Shown one piece after another: positions 9,917 to 64,000 of a stretch of 64,000 bases of DNA. The stretch is from sequence record PQ356294.1; one strand, written 5' to 3'. Both the position numbers and the translations under genes were made by a program. The number at the start of each line of letters is the position of its first letter. Position 1 is the first letter of the stretch. The notes beneath the pieces were generated by a model. It ran no database searches, had not been told where the DNA came from, and saw only the letters and a program-made list of their open reading frames with translations. The stretch comes from Escherichia phage Ec_YwIITB1.

Positions 9917-9992
9917 TGGTCGAGGCAGTAGGGATCGAACCTACGACCTAGGACTTAGAAGGTCCTTGCTCTTCCTTCTGAGCTATGCCTCG
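9917..9992 (-). tRNA. tRNA-Arg (anticodon UCU)
   Basis: Manual cloverleaf: acceptor CGAGGCA/TGCCTCG, D stem GCTC/GAGC, anticodon loop CTTCTAA, T arm GTAGG-TTCGATC-CCTAC, encoded CCA. Confidence 0.85.
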
Positions 9993-10161
9993 AACCCATG
10001 ACTACGAGAATCACAATCTCGAGTTCTACCAACTGAACTACGGCCACATTAATACCTACTCCAACAATCAAGATGTCTTCACACGAAATTAAGAGAAGAG
10101 TGATCAGTTCAACCCCTATAATCGCGTCAAGTAGATATTAATGTGACAGTTGTCACAAATT
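9993..10161 (-). ncRNA. tRNA-like structured RNA (candidate counterpart of T4 stable RNA species 1/2)
   Basis: The 53 nt next to tRNA-Arg fold as acceptor strand GTGGCCG, D arm GTTC/GAAC, perfect anticodon arm CGAGA-TTGTGAT-TCTCG (GUG) and T-stem 5' strand, then run directly into tRNA-Arg with no T-stem 3' strand or acceptor 3' strand; hairpin tgtgaca/tgtcaca at 10141..10160. Confidence 0.4.
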
Positions 10162-10236
10162 TGGCGGACGTGATAGGATTCGAACCTATAACCAATCGCT
10201 TAACAGGCGATCGCTCTGCCATTGAGCTACACATCC
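10162..10236 (-). tRNA. tRNA-Asn (anticodon GUU)
   Basis: Manual cloverleaf: acceptor GGATGTG/CACGTCC, D arm GCTC-AATGGCA-GAGC, anticodon loop CTGTTAA, T arm ATAGG-TTCGAAT-CCTAT, encoded CCA. Confidence 0.8.
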
Positions 10237-10240
10237 AAAT

Positions 10241-10327
10241 TGGTGGGGAGTGGTGGAGTCGAACCACCCGAGTCGCAATGACAATGGATTTACAGTCCAC
10301 ACCGCTACCTCTACGGGATAACTCCCC
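10241..10327 (-). tRNA. tRNA-Tyr (anticodon GUA), class II with long variable arm
   Basis: Acceptor GGGGAGT/ACTCCCC, anticodon arm GTGGA-CTGTAAA-TCCAT, 15-nt variable arm, T arm GGTGG-TTCGACT-CCACC, encoded CCA. Confidence 0.75.
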
Positions 10328-10340
10328 TTAATTCTTAATT

Positions 10341-10415
10341 TGGTGGCCCTGGGTGGAATTGAACCACCATCTGGCGATTATGAGTCGCTTGCTTGAACCT
10401 TCCAGCTACAGGGCC
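10341..10415 (-). tRNA. tRNA with anticodon CAU (Ile by analogy to T4 tRNA-Ile; Met not excluded)
   Basis: Acceptor GGCCCTG/CAGGGCC, anticodon loop CTCATAA, T arm GGTGG-TTCAATT-CCACC, encoded CCA. Confidence 0.8.
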
Positions 10416-10416
10416 T

Positions 10417-10492
10417 TGGTGCTGATTGACGGAATTGAACCGCCGACCTTCCCATTACAAGTGAGTTGCTCTACCTACTGAGCTAAATCAGC
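10417..10492 (-). tRNA. tRNA-Thr (anticodon UGU)
   Basis: Acceptor GCTGATT/AATCAGC, D arm GCTC-AGTAGGTA-GAGC, anticodon loop CTTGTAA (stem has one mismatch), encoded CCA. Confidence 0.8.
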
Positions 10493-10497
10493 AAAAC

Positions 10498-10587
10498 TGG
10501 CGGAGGCGATAGGATTTGAACCTATGAGTCGCCGGAGCGACTGCCGGTTTTCAAGACCGGTGCATTAAACCACTCTGCCACGCCTCC
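10498..10587 (-). tRNA. tRNA-Ser (anticodon UGA), class II
   Basis: Acceptor GGAGGCG/CGCCTCC, anticodon arm ACCGG-CTTGAAA-CCGGT, long variable arm, T arm ATAGG-TTCAAAT-CCTAT, encoded CCA. Confidence 0.85.
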
Positions 10588-10589
10588 AG

Positions 10590-10663
10590 TCTCCATACAA
10601 GGATTTGAACCTTGGACCTCCTGATCCCAAATCAGGCGCTCTACCAAACTGAGCTACACGGAG
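10590..10663 (-). tRNA. tRNA-Pro (anticodon UGG)
   Basis: Acceptor CTCCGTG/TATGGAG (two G-U pairs), anticodon arm CCTGA-TTTGGGA-TCAGG, T arm CAAGG-TTCAAAT-CCTTG; CCA not encoded. Confidence 0.8.
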
Positions 10664-10673
10664 TAAATTAAAT

Positions 10674-10747
<74 letters not shown>

Positions 10748-10752
10748 AAATT

Positions 10753-10839
10753 TGGTGCGAGAAGTGGGACTCGAACCCACAAGGAAATCATTCCGCAGCA
10801 TTTTAAGTGCTGTGCCTTTACCAATTTGACCATTCTCGC
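10753..10839 (-). tRNA. tRNA-Leu (anticodon UAA), class II
   Basis: Acceptor GCGAGAA/TTCTCGC, anticodon arm CAGCA-CTTAAAA-TGCTG, long variable arm, T arm GTGGG-TTCGAGT-CCCAC, encoded CCA. Confidence 0.85.
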
Positions 10840-10840
10840 G

Positions 10841-10913
10841 CTGGGAATAAAGGACTCGAACCTTTGCATCCTGGAATCAAAATCCAGTGCCTTACCAACT
10901 TGGCTAATTCCCA
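10841..10913 (-). tRNA. tRNA-Gln (anticodon UUG)
   Basis: Acceptor TGGGAAT/ATTCCCA, anticodon arm CTGGA-TTTTGAT-TCCAG, T arm AAAGG-TTCGAGT-CCTTT; abuts tRNA-Leu, CCA not encoded. Confidence 0.8.
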
Positions 10914-43346: not shown

Positions 43347-44908
43347 ATGACTATCAAAACTAAAGCTGAACTTTTGAACAAATGGAAGCCATTACTGGAA
43401 GGTGAAGGTTTACCGGAAATTGCTAATAGCAAACAAGCGATTATCGCTAAAATCTTTGAAAACCAGGAAAAAGATTTCCAGACAGCTCCAGAGTACAAAG
43501 ACGAAAAAATCGCCCAGGCGTTCGGTTCTTTCTTAACAGAAGCTGAAATCGGTGGTGACCACGGTTACAACGCTACTAACATTGCTGCTGGTCAGACTTC
43601 TGGCGCAGTAACTCAGATTGGCCCAGCTGTTATGGGTATGGTACGTCGTGCTATTCCTAACCTGATTGCTTTCGATATTTGCGGTGTTCAGCCGATGAAT
43701 AGCCCGACTGGCCAGGTATTTGCACTGCGTGCAGTATATGGTAAAGACCCAATCGCTGCTGATGCTAAAGAAGCATTCCACCCAATGTATGGTCCAGATG
43801 CAATGTTCTCTGGTCAGGGTGCTGCTAAGAAATTCGCGCTAGCACACAAACTACTGTAAGTTGGAACCATTTACACCTATTTCTTCCAGGAAACTGGTAC
43901 TGTATATCTGCAAGCTACCTCTAGTTAAAGCAAATTGATACAAGTGCTTCTGACGCAGCTAAATTAGATGCTGAAATTAAGAAACAAATGGAAGCTGGCG
44001 TATTGGTAGAAATCGCTGAAGGTATGGCTACTTCTATCGCTGAACTTCAGGAAGGTTTCAACGGTTCTACCGATAACCCATGGAATGAAATGGGATTCCG
44101 TATCGATAAACAAGTTATCGAAGCTAAATCTCGTCAGCTGAAAGCTGCTTACTCTATCGAATTAGCACAAGACCTCCGCGCTGTTCACGGTATGGATGCT
44201 GATGCTGAACTGTCTGGTATTCTGGCTACCGAAATCATGCTGGAAATCAACCGTGAAGTTGTTGATTGGATTAACTACTCAGCTCAGGTTGGTAAATCTG
44301 GTATGACCCTGACTCCGGGTTCTAAAGCTGGTGTATTTGACTTCCAGGATCCGATTGATATTCGCGGTGCTCGCTGGGCAGGTGAATCCTTTAAAGCTCT
44401 GTTGTTCCAGATTGACAAAGAAGCAGTTGAAATTGCTCGTCAGACCGGTCGTGGTGAAGGTAACTTCATTATCGCTTCCCGTAACGTAGTTAACGTTCTG
44501 GCTTCAGTTGATACTGGCATTTCTTATGCTGCACAGGGTCTGGCTACCGGCTTTAACACTGATACTACCAAGTCAGTATTTGCTGGTGTTCTGGGTGGTA
44601 AATACCGTGTATACATCGACCAGTATGCTAAACAGGATTATTTCACTGTAGGTTATAAAGGTCCGAACGAAATGGATGCTGGTATTTACTACGCTCCATA
44701 TGTAGCTCTGACTCCGCTGCGTGGTTCCGATCCGAAGAACTTCCAACCGGTAATGGGATTCAAAACTCGTTACGGTATCGGTATCAACCCATTTGCAGAA
44801 TCCGCTGCTCAGGCTCCGGCTTCTCGCATCCAAAGCGGTATGCCTTCTATTCTTAATAGCCTTGGTAAAAACGCTTACTTCCGCCGTGTATATGTTAAAG
44901 GTATCTAA
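43347..44908 (+). CDS. 23: gp23 major capsid protein, frame-disrupted in this sequence
   Basis: ORFs 43347..43859 (170 aa, MTIKTKAELLNKWKPLLEGEG...) and 43988..44908 (306 aa, ...MEAGVLVEIAEGMATSIAELQEGFNG... to YFRRVYVKGI) match the N- and C-terminal parts of T4 gp23; the 130 nt between them encodes the conserved middle in alternating frames with two in-frame TAA stops. Confidence 0.9.
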
Positions 44909-59213: not shown

Positions 59214-60178
59214 TGTATTCTTTAGAGGAATTTAACAATCAAGCAATAAACGCAGATTTTCAACGTAATAATATGTTTAGCTGCGTTTTTGCGACAACTC
59301 CATCAACTAAAAGCTCTTCGTTGATAAGTTCAATTAGCAACTTTTCTTATAATAATTTGGGTCTAAATTCAGATTGGTTAGGATTGTCTCAAGGCGATAT
59401 TAATCAGGGAATTACCACGCTAATTACTGCTGGCACACAAAAACTGATAAGAAAATCAGGGGTTAGTAAATATCTTATTGGTGCCATGAGTCAACGTACA
59501 GTTCAAAGTTTATTGGGCTCATTTACAGTTGGTACATATTTAATTGACTTCTTTAATATGGCATATAATTCGTCTGGGTTGATGATATACTCTGTAAAAA
59601 TGCCAGAGAATAGATTATCCTATGAAACTGACTGGAACTATAATTCTCCTAATATTCGTATAACTGGGAGAGAATTAGACCCTTTGGTTATTTCATTTAG
59701 AATGGATTCAGAGTCGTGTAATTATCGTGCGATGCAAGACTGGGTTAATGCCGTTCAAGACCCAGTAACTGGACTGCGTGCTTTGCCGCAAGATGTCGAG
59801 GCAGATATTCAGGTTAATCTTCATGCTCGTAATGGATTACCTCATACTGCGGTGATGTTCACCGGATGTATTCCAGTGTCAGTGAGCGCTCCTGAGTTAT
59901 CATATGATGGAGATAACCAAATAACTACATTTGATGTTACTTTTGCATACAGAGTCATGCAGGCTGGGTCTGTTGATAGACAAGCTGCGCTTGAGTGGCT
60001 TGAATCTGCTGCTATAAATGGCATTCAAAGCGTTCTCGGAAATAGTGGAGGCGTCACTGGATTATCTAATTCGCTTTCACGACTTAGTAGATTAGGGGGA
60101 ACTGCTGGAAGCATTTCAAACATTAATACTATGACGGGAATTGTCAACTCGCAAAGTAAAATATTAGGAGCAATATAA
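59213..60178 (+). CDS. 54: gp54 baseplate tail tube initiator
   Basis: 321 aa, T4 gp54 length and position. Confidence 0.95.
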   Translation: MYSLEEFNNQAINADFQRNNMFSCVFATTPSTKSSSLISSISNFSYNNLGLNSDWLGLSQGDINQGITTLITAGTQKLIRKSGVSKYLIGAMSQRTVQSLLGSFTVGTYLIDFFNMAYNSSGLMIYSVKMPENRLSYETDWNYNSPNIRITGRELDPLVISFRMDSESCNYRAMQDWVNAVQDPVTGLRALPQDVEADIQVNLHARNGLPHTAVMFTGCIPVSVSAPELSYDGDNQITTFDVTFAYRVMQAGSVDRQAALEWLESAAINGIQSVLGNSGGVTGLSNSLSRLSRLGGTAGSISNINTMTGIVNSQSKILGAI

Positions 60179-60182
60179 CAAT

Positions 60183-60206
60183 GGGGACCGGTCCCCATAT
60201 TTTTAT
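60183..60206. terminator. terminator hairpin between gene 54 and the alt region
   Basis: Palindrome ggggaccggtcccc followed by ATATTTTTATTT. Confidence 0.55.
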
Positions 60207-60493
60207 TTACGGAATGATATAAAAGCAGCAACTGAAGCGACTAAACTGTCTTCAATATAAACTTCAATTTTTACCGGAGCTTCTGACTCAAATTTACCTG
60301 TTACTACACCTTGAAAAATGCTTTCAGTCTGTTCTGGCTTTGAAAAATTTTCAGAAGGAAAAATTCCGAACTTTTTATCTGTTCCAAAAATTTTGATAAA
60401 TTCATCATAAACTGCTTCATTGAAAGCGTTATCAGCAGGAATAACGCCTTCAACTACAAGTTCTTGACCTAAAAAGCGTAAAGAAGATTTCAT
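60203..60493 (-). CDS. hypothetical protein (alt-downstream small ORF)
   Basis: 96 aa ORF downstream of alt, preceded by an early promoter. Confidence 0.55.
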   Translation of the reverse strand: MKSSLRFLGQELVVEGVIPADNAFNEAVYDEFIKIFGTDKKFGIFPSENFSKPEQTESIFQGVVTGKFESEAPVKIEVYIEDSLVASVAAFISFRK

Positions 60494-60524
60494 TTTGTGT
60501 TCCTCATGTTATGTCAGTAAGACT

Positions 60525-60554
60525 ATTATAACACAGCACGAGGGACTTGTAAAC
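60525..60554 (-). promoter_or_regulatory. T4-type early promoter
   Basis: Minus strand GTTTAC-N18-TATAAT; the -35 overlaps the alt stop codon. Confidence 0.6.
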
Positions 60555-62611
60555 TACATCTTGAACTTTTTAGACATTCCGTTGATGTTAACCAAAGAAG
60601 CCAAGATTTGAGAAACTTCGTTTTCCTCTTCTTTTGATTCTTCTACAAGGAATTGATTAAACCCAGCCATTGGACGAACTTCACCAGTTTCCATTAGATG
60701 ATCGCCATCATATACCGATTCTTCTAATTGTTCAGAAGGAGGAACGATTGTGCCTTCAATTAGATACTTGTTATAAGCAGTTTCTTTCATCATGTACGTG
60801 CTCACTTTATTAATCTTCAGCAAAATTCCACGTGGTAGAATAACTTCAGCTTCTGATGGAAATCCTGATAAATGACCTGGAACGATAACTTTGATTCGCT
60901 CAGCCCCTTTAATTACCATACCTACGCTAGCTTCAGCATCTTCATTAGCATATGCAGAATGACTACCCATATGCATTAAATCTTCAGCATCAACAGAACC
61001 TTCTCCTTCACCAGAAAATACTGCGCCGGAATCATCTAGAGCCATATAGTTTTTACCATGCTCACCGAAGATATTTGGTTTAAGCGATGTTGATACGAAG
61101 TTCTTGAAATAGAACATTTTATTTTCAATATTATGGCGTAAAGTTTTAAAAGTAACTTCTTGTCCACGATAAAGCGTAATTCCCGGAGGAAGAACTGAAC
61201 CTTTGGCAAAGGCAGAATCCAGCGTCTCGATGTGTTTAATAGCTCGTTCCATATATTCTTCACGGGTAGAATCTGGTTTACCCAAGAGGAACGAGTTCAT
61301 TTCAACATATGAATCTGCACAATAATCTTCAATTACAACAGACTCAGCCTGAGTTAATCCTTTTGGAGTTACTTCAGTGCTTGCGTATTCATATGCCTGA
61401 GCAGCAGATTCATTAATCAATTTATAAATGCCATTCATGACAAATTGAATAATAGCTACCTTTTCGTCTGGCGTAGCTTTAGAACCTTTAACTAAATCAT
61501 TGATAATTTTCTTAATAACATCAAAGCTATTAGAAATATTAATGTCAGCGAGATCGCTCAAAATTTTATCGGTTTTATAATCAAAAAATTCTTTATTCTT
61601 TAAATATTCTTGAGAACCTTGATATGTTATATCGCTCTGCAGTCTGATAGACGGATCGCGTAAACGTGCATGGGCCAATGCAATATGATTTCGGAGGCTT
61701 TCTAGTTCATAATCGTTAGATTTAAAACGAGAAGCACTTCTCATACCACCGATAGCTCCTTTGCTGAAGTTGGAACCAATCTGAATAACGCCAGAGTTCA
61801 TTGGTCCTTCTGCTTTATATACCGGAACTTTAGATTCAAACTCTTGATATTTCTTGGCGGCGAAGCTATCGCCCTGAAGTGAAGCATCGACAGTAGAATA
61901 TTGAGCTTGCGCTGCCAATCGACGACTAATTTTAGTTTTCTGAATAACAGCTTGATCCGTGCGCTTATCATTTTCTAAAGCAATAGAAGCAGCAACAGCA
62001 ACAGCTTTAGGAACAGCATTACCTGTTTTAACATCTACATAAACATCACCAACCTTTGATTCAACTTTTGTGAATAACTCAGTTGAAATAGGAGGTACAC
62101 CTGGAATGTCTTCTAAATTGGCATTTTTACGGTAAACCATAATATATGCATACTTTTTATCATAATCCCAGATTTCCTTTAAAAGAACATATCGACCTGC
62201 TCCTTTAGTACGTACTAAACGGTCAGCAATAACTTGCATCTGACGAGCTGCGCCATTTGTTTTACTTTTTAGTACGCGGAATAGGCATGCATCAATTTTA
62301 TACTGTTTCATTGTTTGAAGAGCAGTATCAAAAACCGCATTAATGACACCAATTGGATTTCCACCCAAGTTTTTAAGTTTAACTAATGATAGTTTCTCAT
62401 TAACACCTATCATTACGATATGCATCATTTTATCGCCTGGCTTAACGTTTTTATTTGTATCACCGCCAGAGGTGTATGTACAAAATCTAAATCCAGGAAG
62501 CACACTTTCTTCGCCGGCTTGAATAGCAAAAATTTGAGGTATTTTATGCTTAGGATTTAAGTTAACAACCGGCGCCGAAGCGCCGTCAAATAATTCTGTA
62601 ATAAGTTCCAT
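60554..62611 (-). CDS. alt: Alt ADP-ribosyltransferase (capsid-packaged, injected)
   Basis: 685 aa (T4 Alt is 682); C-terminal ART domain with R (YRGQ), STS (NFVSTSL) and E-x-E-like (EAEVILPRG) motifs. Confidence 0.85.
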   Translation of the reverse strand: MELITELFDGASAPVVNLNPKHKIPQIFAIQAGEESVLPGFRFCTYTSGGDTNKNVKPGDKMMHIVMIGVNEKLSLVKLKNLGGNPIGVINAVFDTALQTMKQYKIDACLFRVLKSKTNGAARQMQVIADRLVRTKGAGRYVLLKEIWDYDKKYAYIMVYRKNANLEDIPGVPPISTELFTKVESKVGDVYVDVKTGNAVPKAVAVAASIALENDKRTDQAVIQKTKISRRLAAQAQYSTVDASLQGDSFAAKKYQEFESKVPVYKAEGPMNSGVIQIGSNFSKGAIGGMRSASRFKSNDYELESLRNHIALAHARLRDPSIRLQSDITYQGSQEYLKNKEFFDYKTDKILSDLADINISNSFDVIKKIINDLVKGSKATPDEKVAIIQFVMNGIYKLINESAAQAYEYASTEVTPKGLTQAESVVIEDYCADSYVEMNSFLLGKPDSTREEYMERAIKHIETLDSAFAKGSVLPPGITLYRGQEVTFKTLRHNIENKMFYFKNFVSTSLKPNIFGEHGKNYMALDDSGAVFSGEGEGSVDAEDLMHMGSHSAYANEDAEASVGMVIKGAERIKVIVPGHLSGFPSEAEVILPRGILLKINKVSTYMMKETAYNKYLIEGTIVPPSEQLEESVYDGDHLMETGEVRPMAGFNQFLVEESKEEENEVSQILASLVNINGMSKKFKM

Positions 62612-62614
62612 GAT

Positions 62615-64000
62615 TTATCCTTGAACGAACTTGTAAGGCATGTTTGTAATATCTATGCAAGACGCAATAATTCCAAGAGATGATTCTACTTTTTGTTTAA
62701 CATTTGATGAAACAAATGATGCAAAGTCAACTCTGTCTTCTATTTCAATATCATCTGTCATTGCAACTACTTCACCAGTTTCCATTAGACGATCACCGTC
62801 ATAAATTACTGATTCGGTGAGTTCTTCGGTAGTCATAACTTCAGCTTGAATAAGCTTGTTGTTAGTTTTAGCTGTTCCATCATTGTAAGATGCGTCGGTT
62901 ATTTTATTGACTTTGACCATCAATCCACGCGGCAAAATGACTTCCATTTCATTTGAAGGCGCTAAACTTCCACCTGGTAAAACAACGTTGACTTTATCAG
63001 CCCCAGTAATAACCCATCCAATTCCAACTAAATTATCGCTAGAATTAACAAGTCCTTCATCGTTTTTATCGATAGAAATGTTTAGACGCTTTTCGTCTGG
63101 TAAAACACCCACAGCTGAATCAGTCATCCAAGTACCAAAAATGTTTGGATATAATGATGTTGATACAAAATTTCTAAAATAAAAAACTCGATTTTTTACC
63201 AATGCTTCATATATTGAAGGAGCAGTCATGCTTTGAGCACGATAAACTGTAATGCCTTCTGGTATACGGTCACCATTTTCAAAGGCTGAATCTAAATTAT
63301 TTATCGCAGATTCAATTTCTTTTTCACTCATTACCTCATATCGTTCTGGATTATATAATCCCAAAAGAGCATTATTCATGTCTACATATCCTGAACCTAC
63401 GTATTCACGAATTCCGCGTTTTTGTGCCGGTGTGTATTTAGATGAATCTTTATTTTCGACTATAGAATGCAATGACCATCCAACGGTAAGAGCATATCCA
63501 CGTAATTCTCTTCGAATAATCTTTGTTTTTATTGCATTCCAAGAATTTTGCACTAACTCATTCGCAGCATCTTGATTTAAATGCGAATGCTTGTTAATAT
63601 TTCTTTCTAACCAAGCACCTTTATATTTTTCTAAAGTATCATCAACTATAGAAGCAATAGTTTCTAAAGTTTTTATTGAAGTAATAGATTCTTTTCGTAA
63701 TCTTTCTAAAGCTTTATTTTTTATTTCTGCATTAACATCAGATTCTTTATCTTCAGGAATTATAGAAGCTTCTCTGAATGCCATTCCAGCTGTAACACTA
63801 TTAAGAGCATTCTCTAATGCAAATCCTGAAGTAGAAATAACAGTTAATTCGTTAGCATCAGAAATTAAAGGCGCGTCAGCGGGTTTATTTAATTCTGCTG
63901 CTGAAGCCTCAAATTTTTGAAACATTGGTGTTTCAAATCTAGAAGATTCTAATGATTGACTTTGTGCAATTGCTCTACGGGAAATTTTAACTTTAACGAT
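62615..64000 (-). CDS. second Alt-family ADP-ribosyltransferase, 5' end beyond the window
   Basis: C-terminal 300 aa paralogous to alt (YFRNFVSTSLYPNIFG, EMEVILPRGLMVKVNKI, DGDRLMETGEV); frame stays open upstream of the first ATG (63925) to the window edge. Confidence 0.75.
   Translation of the reverse strand: MVKVKISRRAIAQSQSLESSRFETPMFQKFEASAAELNKPADAPLISDANELTVISTSGFALENALNSVTAGMAFREASIIPEDKESDVNAEIKNKALERLRKESITSIKTLETIASIVDDTLEKYKGAWLERNINKHSHLNQDAANELVQNSWNAIKTKIIRRELRGYALTVGWSLHSIVENKDSSKYTPAQKRGIREYVGSGYVDMNNALLGLYNPERYEVMSEKEIESAINNLDSAFENGDRIPEGITVYRAQSMTAPSIYEALVKNRVFYFRNFVSTSLYPNIFGTWMTDSAVGVLPDEKRLNISIDKNDEGLVNSSDNLVGIGWVITGADKVNVVLPGGSLAPSNEMEVILPRGLMVKVNKITDASYNDGTAKTNNKLIQAEVMTTEELTESVIYDGDRLMETGEVVAMTDDIEIEDRVDFASFVSSNVKQKVESSLGIIASCIDITNMPYKFVQG

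Follow-up and report, generated by a model that had tools for sequence, protein, structure and literature searches.

The last part of the 64,000-nucleotide stretch of Escherichia phage Ec_YwIITB1 DNA analysed here (the window) carries two Alt-family ADP-ribosyltransferase (ART) genes in tandem, which raises the questions of which of the two corresponds to T4 alt, whether the second copy is peculiar to this phage, and whether it acts on host proteins of its own. A first-pass annotation had placed the pair at 60554-64000, and the ORF listing of the window contains both frames there on the minus strand, as are all features cited below except the hairpin, which is given by position. Both ORFs match PF03496 (ADPrib_exo_Tox), with 74.8 bits for the downstream ORF (AltB) and 123.5 bits for the upstream ORF (AltA) against a Pfam gathering threshold of 23.4 bits, and they align with each other in BLASTP at 30% identity over 496 columns (E=6e-46). 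The C-terminal blocks on which their paralogy had been proposed (FYFKNFVSTSL/FYFRNFVSTSL, EAEVILPRG/EMEVILPRG and DGDHLMETGEV/DGDRLMETGEV) are all present.

Identity of the two genes and layout of the alt locus

AltB is complete (685 aa; 60554..62611, minus strand) and is assigned as an Alt paralogue from the ORF listing, the tree described below and PHROG 802, which it matches over residues 1-685 (E=3e-254). Its homology to T4 Alt is full-length and includes the Alt-specific N-terminal domain; for the upstream ORF, the same family comparison covers the visible residues ~224-684. AltA is cut by the window edge, which leaves the 3' two-thirds of the gene (codons ~224-684 of ~684; 62615..64000, stop codon 62615-62617). 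Its frame is open at the edge, as first described: no stop interrupts the 461 codons up to base 64000. The first in-window ATG of this frame lies at 63925, and Alt homology extends upstream of it, where IVKVKISRRAIAQSQ aligns with Alt residues 224-238. In phage KNP5 (97% nucleotide identity at the locus), the upstream gene encodes 684 aa; the window AltA therefore probably runs ~670 nt past base 64000, in keeping with the earlier expectation of a full-length gene. Both copies look intact, AltB being complete and AltA open throughout its part within the window.

The name alt had, however, been given to the wrong member of the pair. The upstream ORF is 92% identical in amino acid sequence to T4 Alt (NP_049811), and its DNA is co-linear with that of T4 at 92% nucleotide identity (blastn), whereas the 685-aa ORF is 41-46% identical to T4 Alt, the range reflecting the alignment used. 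In the neighbour-joining tree, AltA and AltB form separate clades with 100% bootstrap each, both including Tequatrovirus and Dhakavirus members. The full-length KNP5 counterpart of the upstream ORF falls inside the AltA clade; the 685-aa ORF does not cluster with T4 Alt but lies in the AltB clade with JS98 altb and WG01 ORF199 (100% bootstrap), so that it is monophyletic with annotated altb genes, and it sits, as an AltB-group gene should, immediately 3' of alt. Judged by sequence, the edge-truncated upstream ORF is the T4 alt orthologue, and the 685-aa gene should be labelled an Alt paralogue (altB), not alt.

The gene order at the locus is DNA ligase - alt.1 - alt (AltA) - AltB - alt.-3, followed by gp54 on the opposite strand, which places AltB between alt.1/DNA ligase and alt.-3/gp54. 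The T4 order is kept inside the window (gp29-gp48-gp54, alt.-3, AltB and its upstream neighbour AltA); for alt.1 and the ligase gene, which fall past its edge, the positions were taken from KNP5, T2 and T6. The gap between AltA and AltB is 3 nt long (62612-62614). AltB is in turn followed by a homologue of alt.-3 (96 aa, DUF5498; 60203..60493, minus strand), identified by Pfam PF17602 (E=1.4e-64) and by synteny with T4 alt.-3, with an early-type promoter-like site on its 5' side (60553..60525, minus strand; promoter scan) and a hairpin on its 3' side (60181-60198; terminator scan). The phage is a Tequatrovirus, i.e., a T-even phage, and its alt locus forms the end of the window.

Distribution of the gene pair, its loss in T4 and selection on AltB

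The duplication had been implied to be a trait of the phage at hand, a view that the distribution of the pair contradicts. Among 509 matching phage records, 394 cover at least 80% of 60100-64000, and the C-terminal 448 aa of AltB are encoded at 95% identity or more in 401 of the roughly 500 related records. The two-gene layout is also found in T2 and T6, and the synteny matches KNP5 and JS98. The AltB genes of the window, KNP5, T2 and T6 all have a length of 2,058 nt; the product of the window gene is 99% identical to KNP5 gp154, and the T2 and T6 proteins AYD82791 ('alt.-1') and AXN58232 ('alt.-2') are full-length AltB orthologues of 685 aa at the same position. In the Dhakavirus JS98 the pair is annotated as alta/altb (altb being ABX11128), and this altb and WG01 ORF199, also from a Dhakavirus, are ~50% identical to the window AltB. 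Set beside these annotated AltB-type genes (JS98, WG01, T2, T6, KNP5), the window AltB is one more member and differs from them in nothing notable. The Alt/AltB pair is already known, annotated and normal in most T4-type phages.

T4 is the exception among T4-type phages because one copy has been deleted. The window segment 60574-62263 is absent from T4 and is flanked by two copies of the 9-bp direct repeat CTAAAAAGT, the upstream copy (62264..62272, minus strand) marking the left and the downstream copy (60565..60573, minus strand) the right breakpoint, as identified from the blastn co-linearity break and the junction sequences. Positions 60001-64000 contain these two copies of the repeat and no other; they lie 1,699 bp apart, and one is retained in T4. 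What is left of AltB in T4 is alt.-1/alt.-2, which corresponds to the first ~116 AltB codons at ~92% nucleotide identity: alt.-1, once translated, reads almost exactly like AltB residues 1-54, and alt.-2 matches residues 56-116 in another frame. The T4 copy carries a frameshift after codon ~54 together with the 1,699-bp deletion, whereas the window AltB is intact. By these sequences, T4 lost AltB through repeat-mediated deletion between the CTAAAAAGT copies plus a frameshift. The statement in the first-pass annotation that T4 has a single alt gene is right for intact genes, but T4 keeps an AltB remnant besides. With the pair in T2 and T6 and a remnant in T4, the arrangement is simply conserved, the outcome that the annotation had itself named as contrary to its proposal. 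The T4-type junction was found in 91 of 502 records; since ~18% of related phages, T4 included, are without AltB, the gene is non-essential on some hosts at any rate.

Where it is kept, AltB is under strong purifying selection. Its dN/dS is 0.037-0.052 at dS 0.08-0.24, with a dN of 0.010-0.011 against T2 and T6. AltA, compared between T4 and T2/T6, gives a dN of 0.19 and a dN/dS of 0.37. That AltB is tightly constrained and AltA fast-evolving suggests different selective regimes for the two genes.

Domain organization and catalytic residues of AltB

AltB consists of an N-terminal alpha/beta domain (aa 1-235; 61907..62611, minus strand), which at 67.5% identity to Alt is the part best conserved between the paralogues, a middle all-helical region (aa 236-470; 61202..61906, minus strand), which at 24% identity is the most diverged, and a catalytic core (aa 471-631; 60719..61201, minus strand) delimited by motif positions and Foldseek. 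The Pfam ART match begins at aa 416 and takes in the C-terminal helices of the middle region; over the ART domain, AltB and T4 Alt are 38% identical. The N-terminal domain searched alone had no Pfam match at E<=10, and neither paralogue had a match in NCBIfam. PF26846 is listed for Alt/AltB proteins in precomputed annotations. A sequence search of the PDB returned a marginal match to CdtA only (E=0.076) and no solved Alt structure.

The Arg, Ser-Thr-Ser and Glu-x-Glu motifs that define ARTs of the R-S-E clade occur in AltB in the required order, as R482 (61166-61168), S507-T508-S509 (61085-61093) and E587-A-E589 (60845-60853, all minus strand), each placed by motif position. R482, S507, S509, E587 and E589 are invariant among 28 AltA/AltB sequences. 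AltA has the corresponding YRAQ, STS and EME motifs. In T4 Alt, mutation of the second Glu of the ExE motif, reported as E577A, abolished activity (PMC11404850). An AF2 model of AltB built from 28 sequences is of moderate confidence (mean pLDDT 74.9), with the ART core mostly at 70-90. The fold assignment, which uses this model, is supported by Foldseek matches to Vis toxin, C3bot, CDTa, iota and VIP2 as the top PDB entries (probability 1.00, E 4e-8 to 1e-5, target TM-scores 0.6-0.7 for the single-domain toxins), and the catalytic domain is predicted to adopt the C3/VIP2/Vis-type ART fold of the R-S-E clade. These toxins (Vibrio Vis, C. botulinum C3, CDTa, iota Ia and VIP2) share the fold and the R/STS/ExE triad with AltB; however, they are only 16-21% identical to it in sequence and have neither the N-terminal and helical domains of Alt nor the gp21-cleaved propeptides.

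By similarity to Alt, AltB is a putative ADP-ribosyltransferase, and arginine would be its expected acceptor. Its low dN/dS, intact catalytic residues and gp21 motifs (below), together with the modelled ART fold, make it look functional.

Expression and head-protease signals

AltB has its own ribosome-binding site, AAGGA (62618..62622, minus strand; read from the sequence), which lies within the last AltA codons, 6 nt ahead of the AltB ATG. The AltA start and promoter fall outside the window and were read in its relatives: the late promoter TATAAATA precedes the AltA ATG by 23-30 nt in KNP5, T4, T2 and T6. A late promoter belonging to AltB itself was considered and rejected, as no TATAAATA is found in the window between 60000 and 64000; AltB is therefore probably co-transcribed late with AltA. 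An internal TATAAATA is present within the alt genes of T2 and T6 and absent from the window and KNP5.

T4 Alt is a mono-ADP-ribosyltransferase carried in the phage head and injected into the host. It is cut by the gp21 prohead protease at ITE-6 and LTE-619 (PMC5694885), and AltB carries both sites as sequence motifs. Its codons 1-6 (62594..62611, minus strand) encode MELITE, the same as the N-terminal propeptide of T4 Alt. L629-E630-E631, at the position aligned with the second site, and the 54-residue C-terminal tail that follows (60557..60727, minus strand) form the counterpart of the Alt C-terminal propeptide by alignment; AltA has ELTE at this position. E631 is invariant in the 28 AltA/AltB sequences, the tail contains the conserved DGDHLMETGE block, and residues 629-685 are modelled as disordered (pLDDT <50). 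By analogy with Alt, AltB would be cleaved by gp21, packaged in the head and injected; a literature search found no virion proteomics for AltB.

AltB thus resembles T4 Alt in its three-part build, MELITE, the R/STS/ExE residues, the L-x-E before the tail and its genomic position, and differs in its separate orthologous clade and its overall divergence. We consider it very probable that the window ends in a Tequatrovirus alt locus with two ancient paralogues, AltA and AltB, which share one build and would act in four Alt-like steps, a mechanism drawn by analogy with T4 Alt. Both proteins consist of a conserved N-terminal alpha/beta domain with a MELITE propeptide, a variable helical middle, and a C-terminal ART domain of the R-S-ExE type with a propeptide behind it. 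First, both genes would be transcribed late from TATAAATA just upstream of AltA, with AltB translated from its own AAGGA site, its start 3 nt past the AltA stop. Second, both products would become part of the prohead core and be shortened by gp21 at both ends (ITE-6; L-x-E near residue 619/631). Third, both would be injected together with the DNA; T4 ModA and ModB, by comparison, are small proteins of the early class, synthesized after infection. Fourth, as soon as infection begins, both would use NAD+ to mono-ADP-ribosylate arginines of host proteins.

Discussion

The first-pass annotation had suggested that a duplicated ART could hit different host proteins, a plausible idea, since the two enzymes differ in the sequence that surrounds and separates their catalytic motifs. 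The STS-to-ExE segment varies in length and sequence between AltA and AltB, and just before ExE the window AltB reads SGFPSEAE where AltA reads SLAPSNEME. Fixed differences between the clades within the ART core are few (H493/A, I576/V, L597/M, E619/Q and S626/E), and these five sites indicate no specific change in target recognition. One reading, to which we would give slightly less than even chances, is that AltB is the more conserved injected ART of the T-even phages, with targets distinct from those of Alt, and has gone unstudied only through its deletion in T4. If so, the T4-based view of the first seconds of T-even takeover misses an enzyme injected by ~80% of the sequenced relatives.

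Another account, which we regard as somewhat unlikely, is that AltB, although active and injected, is redundant, modifying the same targets as AltA (RNA polymerase alpha and the other Alt substrates) and merely raising the dose. RNA polymerase alpha Arg265 is a known Alt substrate site, both paralogues have the catalytic motifs and the ExE signature of the arginine type, and T4 grows without AltB. Yet AltA and AltB have remained separate from each other in different genera, their helical middles and STS-ExE segments have diverged, and AltB is constrained where AltA evolves fast; these points speak against redundancy and identify no target.

That AltB is decaying or catalytically dead, at most filling the head core as a structural protein while AltA is the sole enzyme, appears very improbable. 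Such a role would accord with the description of Alt as a head-core protein besides its enzymatic function (PMC11404850), and with the loss of AltB from T4 and ~90 other records without obvious harm. It is hard to reconcile with a full-length open frame in the window, KNP5, T2 and T6, a dN/dS of 0.04-0.05 that lies below the AltA value, invariant R482, STS and ExE, and a modelled ART core (pLDDT mostly 70-90) resembling NAD-bound toxins. The view that alt was duplicated recently and only in the lineage of this phage, as the earlier annotation implied and as the single intact alt of reference T4 might suggest, is refuted by the tree and by the same pair in T2 and T6, and we give it practically no credence, given paralogues merely 30-46% identical, identically placed AltB orthologues in T2, T6, KNP5, JS98 and WG01, fully supported clades across two genera and a decayed AltB in T4.

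As a genomic observation the pair adds nothing new, being annotated in hundreds of genomes and discussed in print: Alt duplications, and with them the idea of expanded targets, already appear in genome papers of 2006, 2014 and 2026. Two Alt paralogues with an 'expanded targets' proposal were reported for 6phi13 and SHFML-11 (PMC13600099), and tandem extra Alt genes or fragments near alt are described for 44RR (ORF187c/188c), RB49 (ORF183c), Acinetobacter phages ZZ1 and Ac42, and Bp7 (PMC1524935; PMC4177764). No experimental work on the second Alt copy was found in the searchable literature. What the comparison does bring out is that T4 is atypical at its alt locus, most natural T-even phages carrying a second, tightly conserved and presumably injected Alt-family enzyme. 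Across the Alt arrays (44RR, RB49, ZZ1, Ac42, Bp7, WG01), copy number (1-3), orientation and completeness vary; among array phages, orthology to AltB was assessed for JS98 and WG01. The 'three ART genes' of Shigella phage sb4 are no triple: that record is riddled with frameshifts, and its annotation is broken into fragments. WG01, by contrast, has a genuine triple of Alt-family genes. The T4 record annotates alt.-1/alt.-2 as an old duplication of the alt start.

Two tandem Alt-family genes at the alt locus

The last 3.4 kb of the window hold two minus-strand ORFs, a complete 685-aa ORF in the ORF listing (AltB, 60554-62611) and an upstream truncated ORF (AltA), whose stop codon (62615-62617) lies 3 bases upstream of the AltB ATG; the names follow the JS98 annotation alta/altb. 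A reading frame check found no stop in AltA across all 461 codons to base 64000, so the frame is indeed open at the window edge, as the first-pass annotation had noted. The listed start of this ORF is an internal ATG at 63925, and since the residues encoded upstream of it (IVKVKISRRAIAQSQ...) still align with Alt, the AltA start lies outside the window. The two products are homologous (E=6e-46, 30% identity, 496 columns), both score above the gathering threshold for Pfam ADPrib_exo_Tox (PF03496), and both match PHROG 802, 'Alt-like RNA polymerase ADP-ribosyltransferase'. With all three motif blocks quoted in the first-pass annotation also found, these results confirm its claim of two related ADP-ribosyltransferase (ART) genes in tandem. 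However, it had taken the 685-aa ORF for the alt gene. In an alignment of both window ORFs with T4 Alt and the two KNP5 genes, AltB is 46% identical to T4 Alt (99% to KNP5 gp154) versus 92% for AltA; judged by this alignment, the true alt orthologue is the truncated upstream ORF, and the labels had been swapped.

The region is a Tequatrovirus alt locus. Directly before it lie the plus-strand genes gp29, gp48, and gp54, and within it is a minus-strand alt.-3 homologue (60203-60493, 96 aa, DUF5498). A terminator scan on both strands found a GC-rich palindromic hairpin (60181-60198) between gp54 and alt.-3.

T4 carries a remnant of AltB

The first-pass annotation gave T4 a single alt gene, which holds to the extent that no intact second copy is present. 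Just downstream of alt, however, the T4 record annotates the small ORFs alt.-1 and alt.-2, remarking that the two together represent an old duplication of the beginning of alt; this stretch translates to MELITELFDGASAPVVTLNPKHKIPQIFAIQAGEESVLPGFRFCTYTSGGDTNK, near-identical to AltB residues 1-54, and beyond a frameshift resumes as residues 56-116. By blastn, T4 and the window are co-linear from 64000 down to 62264 and again from 60573 downward, and window positions 60574-62263 are absent from T4. The breakpoints coincide with the only two copies of CTAAAAAGT in the region (62264-62272 and 60565-60573, 1,699 bp apart), one of which is kept in T4; AltB was thus lost from T4 through a short-repeat deletion and a frameshift. 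The T4 condition at this locus is derived, not ancestral.

Distribution and age of the pair

Megablast of 60100-64000 matched 509 phage records, the best of which (Ec_MI-02, KNP5, and pSs-1) are ~97% identical; at least 80% of the stretch is covered in 394 of the 509. The C-terminal 448 aa of AltB are encoded at no less than 95% identity in 401 records, and the T4-type deletion junction occurs in one piece in 91 of 502. An intact 2,058-nt AltB gene is present in T2, where it is labelled 'alt.-1', and in T6, whose record reads 'alt.-2; apparent insertion in alt.-2; also similar to alt'. In Dhakavirus JS98, alta and altb occupy matching positions. RB49 combines alt with a C-terminal fragment, and JK45 and JD18 each carry one copy. 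In a neighbour-joining tree of 12 full-length proteins, an AltA clade (T4, KNP5 gp155, JS98 alta, WG01_200, and JK45) and an AltB clade (the window gene, KNP5 gp154, JS98 altb, and WG01_199) each received 100% bootstrap support and include members of both genera, placing the alt duplication before the Tequatrovirus/Dhakavirus split.

Escherichia phage WG01 (L004, 744-6856) carries three tandem full-length Alt-family genes (631, 693, and 707 aa), the first of which (ORF201) falls outside both clades in the tree, so the locus acts like an expandable set of presumably injected ARTs. Shigella phage JK45 (L007, 2843-4930), classified as a Tequatrovirus, has a lone alt gene without AltB whose product is 73% identical to JS98 alta versus 42% to T4 Alt, which points to horizontal replacement at this locus. 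The '3 ADP-ribosyltransferases' of Shigella phage sb4 (L005) were rejected as an artefact of what looks like a frameshift-rich assembly; its alt, AltB, gp48, and DNA ligase genes are each annotated as several fragments.

The pair is already known and is a usual feature of this phage group. Reports of Alt duplications date from 2006 (T4 alt.-1/alt.-2, 44RR, and RB49; PMC1524935) and 2014 (ZZ1, Ac42, JS98, and Bp7; PMC4177764). The exact pair, at 43% identity, is described for 6phi13 and SHFML-11 in a genome paper of 2026, which proposes an expanded target range (PMC13600099). Across the locus, SHFML-11 and the window share 94.7% identity, and many RefSeq records annotate 'Alt-like RNA polymerase ADP-ribosyltransferase (x2)'. 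Searches of the accessible literature turned up no experimental work on AltB. The remaining interest is a conserved second enzyme left uncharacterised because T4 lacks it.

AltB is conserved as a predicted ADP-ribosyltransferase

The AltB frame is intact and of the same length in the window, KNP5, T2, and T6, and pairwise dN/dS values of 0.037-0.052 (dS 0.08-0.24) indicate strong purifying selection. Its catalytic residues are in place (R482, S507-T508-S509, and E587-A-E589), with R482, S507, S509, E587, and E589 invariant in 28 AltA/AltB sequences; T4 Alt becomes inactive when the second Glu of its ExE motif is mutated (reported as E577A; PMC11404850). The AlphaFold model (mean pLDDT 74.9) has four parts: an N-terminal alpha/beta domain (residues 1-235), an all-helical middle (236-470), the ART core, and a low-confidence tail (629-685). 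Its top Foldseek matches in the PDB are exclusively R-S-E ART toxins (Vis, C3, CDTa, iota, and VIP2; E 4e-8 to 1e-5). Pfam and NCBIfam profile searches added nothing for the N-terminal domain, and a PDB sequence search found no solved Alt structure.

Predicted expression and processing

In T4, Alt belongs to the prohead core, with about 40 copies per head; the gp21 protease cuts it at ITE-6 and LTE-619 before it is injected with the DNA (PMC9026906; PMC5694885). AltB has the identical N-terminus MELITE, and its L629-E630-E631 aligns with LTE-619; past E631, a conserved DGDHLMETGE block lies in a tail that the model shows as disordered. In KNP5, T4, T2, and T6, the late promoter TATAAATA precedes the alt ATG by 23-30 nt; none occurs within window 60000-64000. 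The gap between the AltA stop and the AltB ATG is 3 nt, and an AAGGA site precedes this ATG by 6 nt. By these likenesses to T4 Alt and the promoter position in relatives, AltB would be co-transcribed late with AltA, packaged, trimmed by gp21, and injected, and would catalyse arginine-directed mono-ADP-ribosylation of the ExE type.

An extra TATAAATA inside alt of T6 (L009, 4076-4083) and T2 (L010, 5518-5525), ~715 nt upstream of AltB and absent from the window and KNP5, could provide T2 and T6 with an internal late promoter for AltB. A near-consensus sigma-70/T4-early-type promoter-like site (60525-60553, minus strand; TTTACA, 17-nt spacer with TG, TATAAT; 11 of 12 matches) directly follows the AltB stop and precedes the alt.-3 homologue, so this homologue may be expressed early, independently of the late alt genes.

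AltA is the more variable member

AltA is far more variable than AltB (T4 versus T2/T6, dN 0.19, dN/dS 0.37) and, by these rates, is the fast-evolving member of the pair. Its length is 697 aa in T2 and T6 versus 682 in T4, and a local patch reading PERYEVMSEKEIESAINN in the window versus PDERTSILTAPEIEQAIDN in the otherwise 97%-identical KNP5 suggests mosaic exchange. The helical middles of AltA and AltB are 24% identical, the STS-to-ExE segments differ in length and sequence, and the two genes are under very different constraint (dN/dS). None of these features identifies a target, but together they lead us to lean towards AltB targets that have diverged from those of Alt.

Other observations in the window

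The major capsid gene gp23 (43347-44908, plus strand) is split into two plus-strand ORFs in different frames (43347-43859, 170 aa; 43988-44908, 306 aa). In three-frame translation of 43835-43990, the gp23-like peptide moves through frames 0, 2, 0, 2 in ~130 nt, implying at least three indels; since gp23 is essential, the split probably reflects an error of sequencing or assembly in a variable patch. ARAGORN made 11 calls in a minus-strand tRNA cluster (9917-10913; Arg, His, Asn, Tyr, Met(CAT), Thr, Ser, Pro, Gly, Leu, and Gln); against the 8 tRNAs of T4, those for Asn, Tyr, and His would be additional. His (9976-10048) is a doubtful call that shares 17 nt with Arg (9917-9992).
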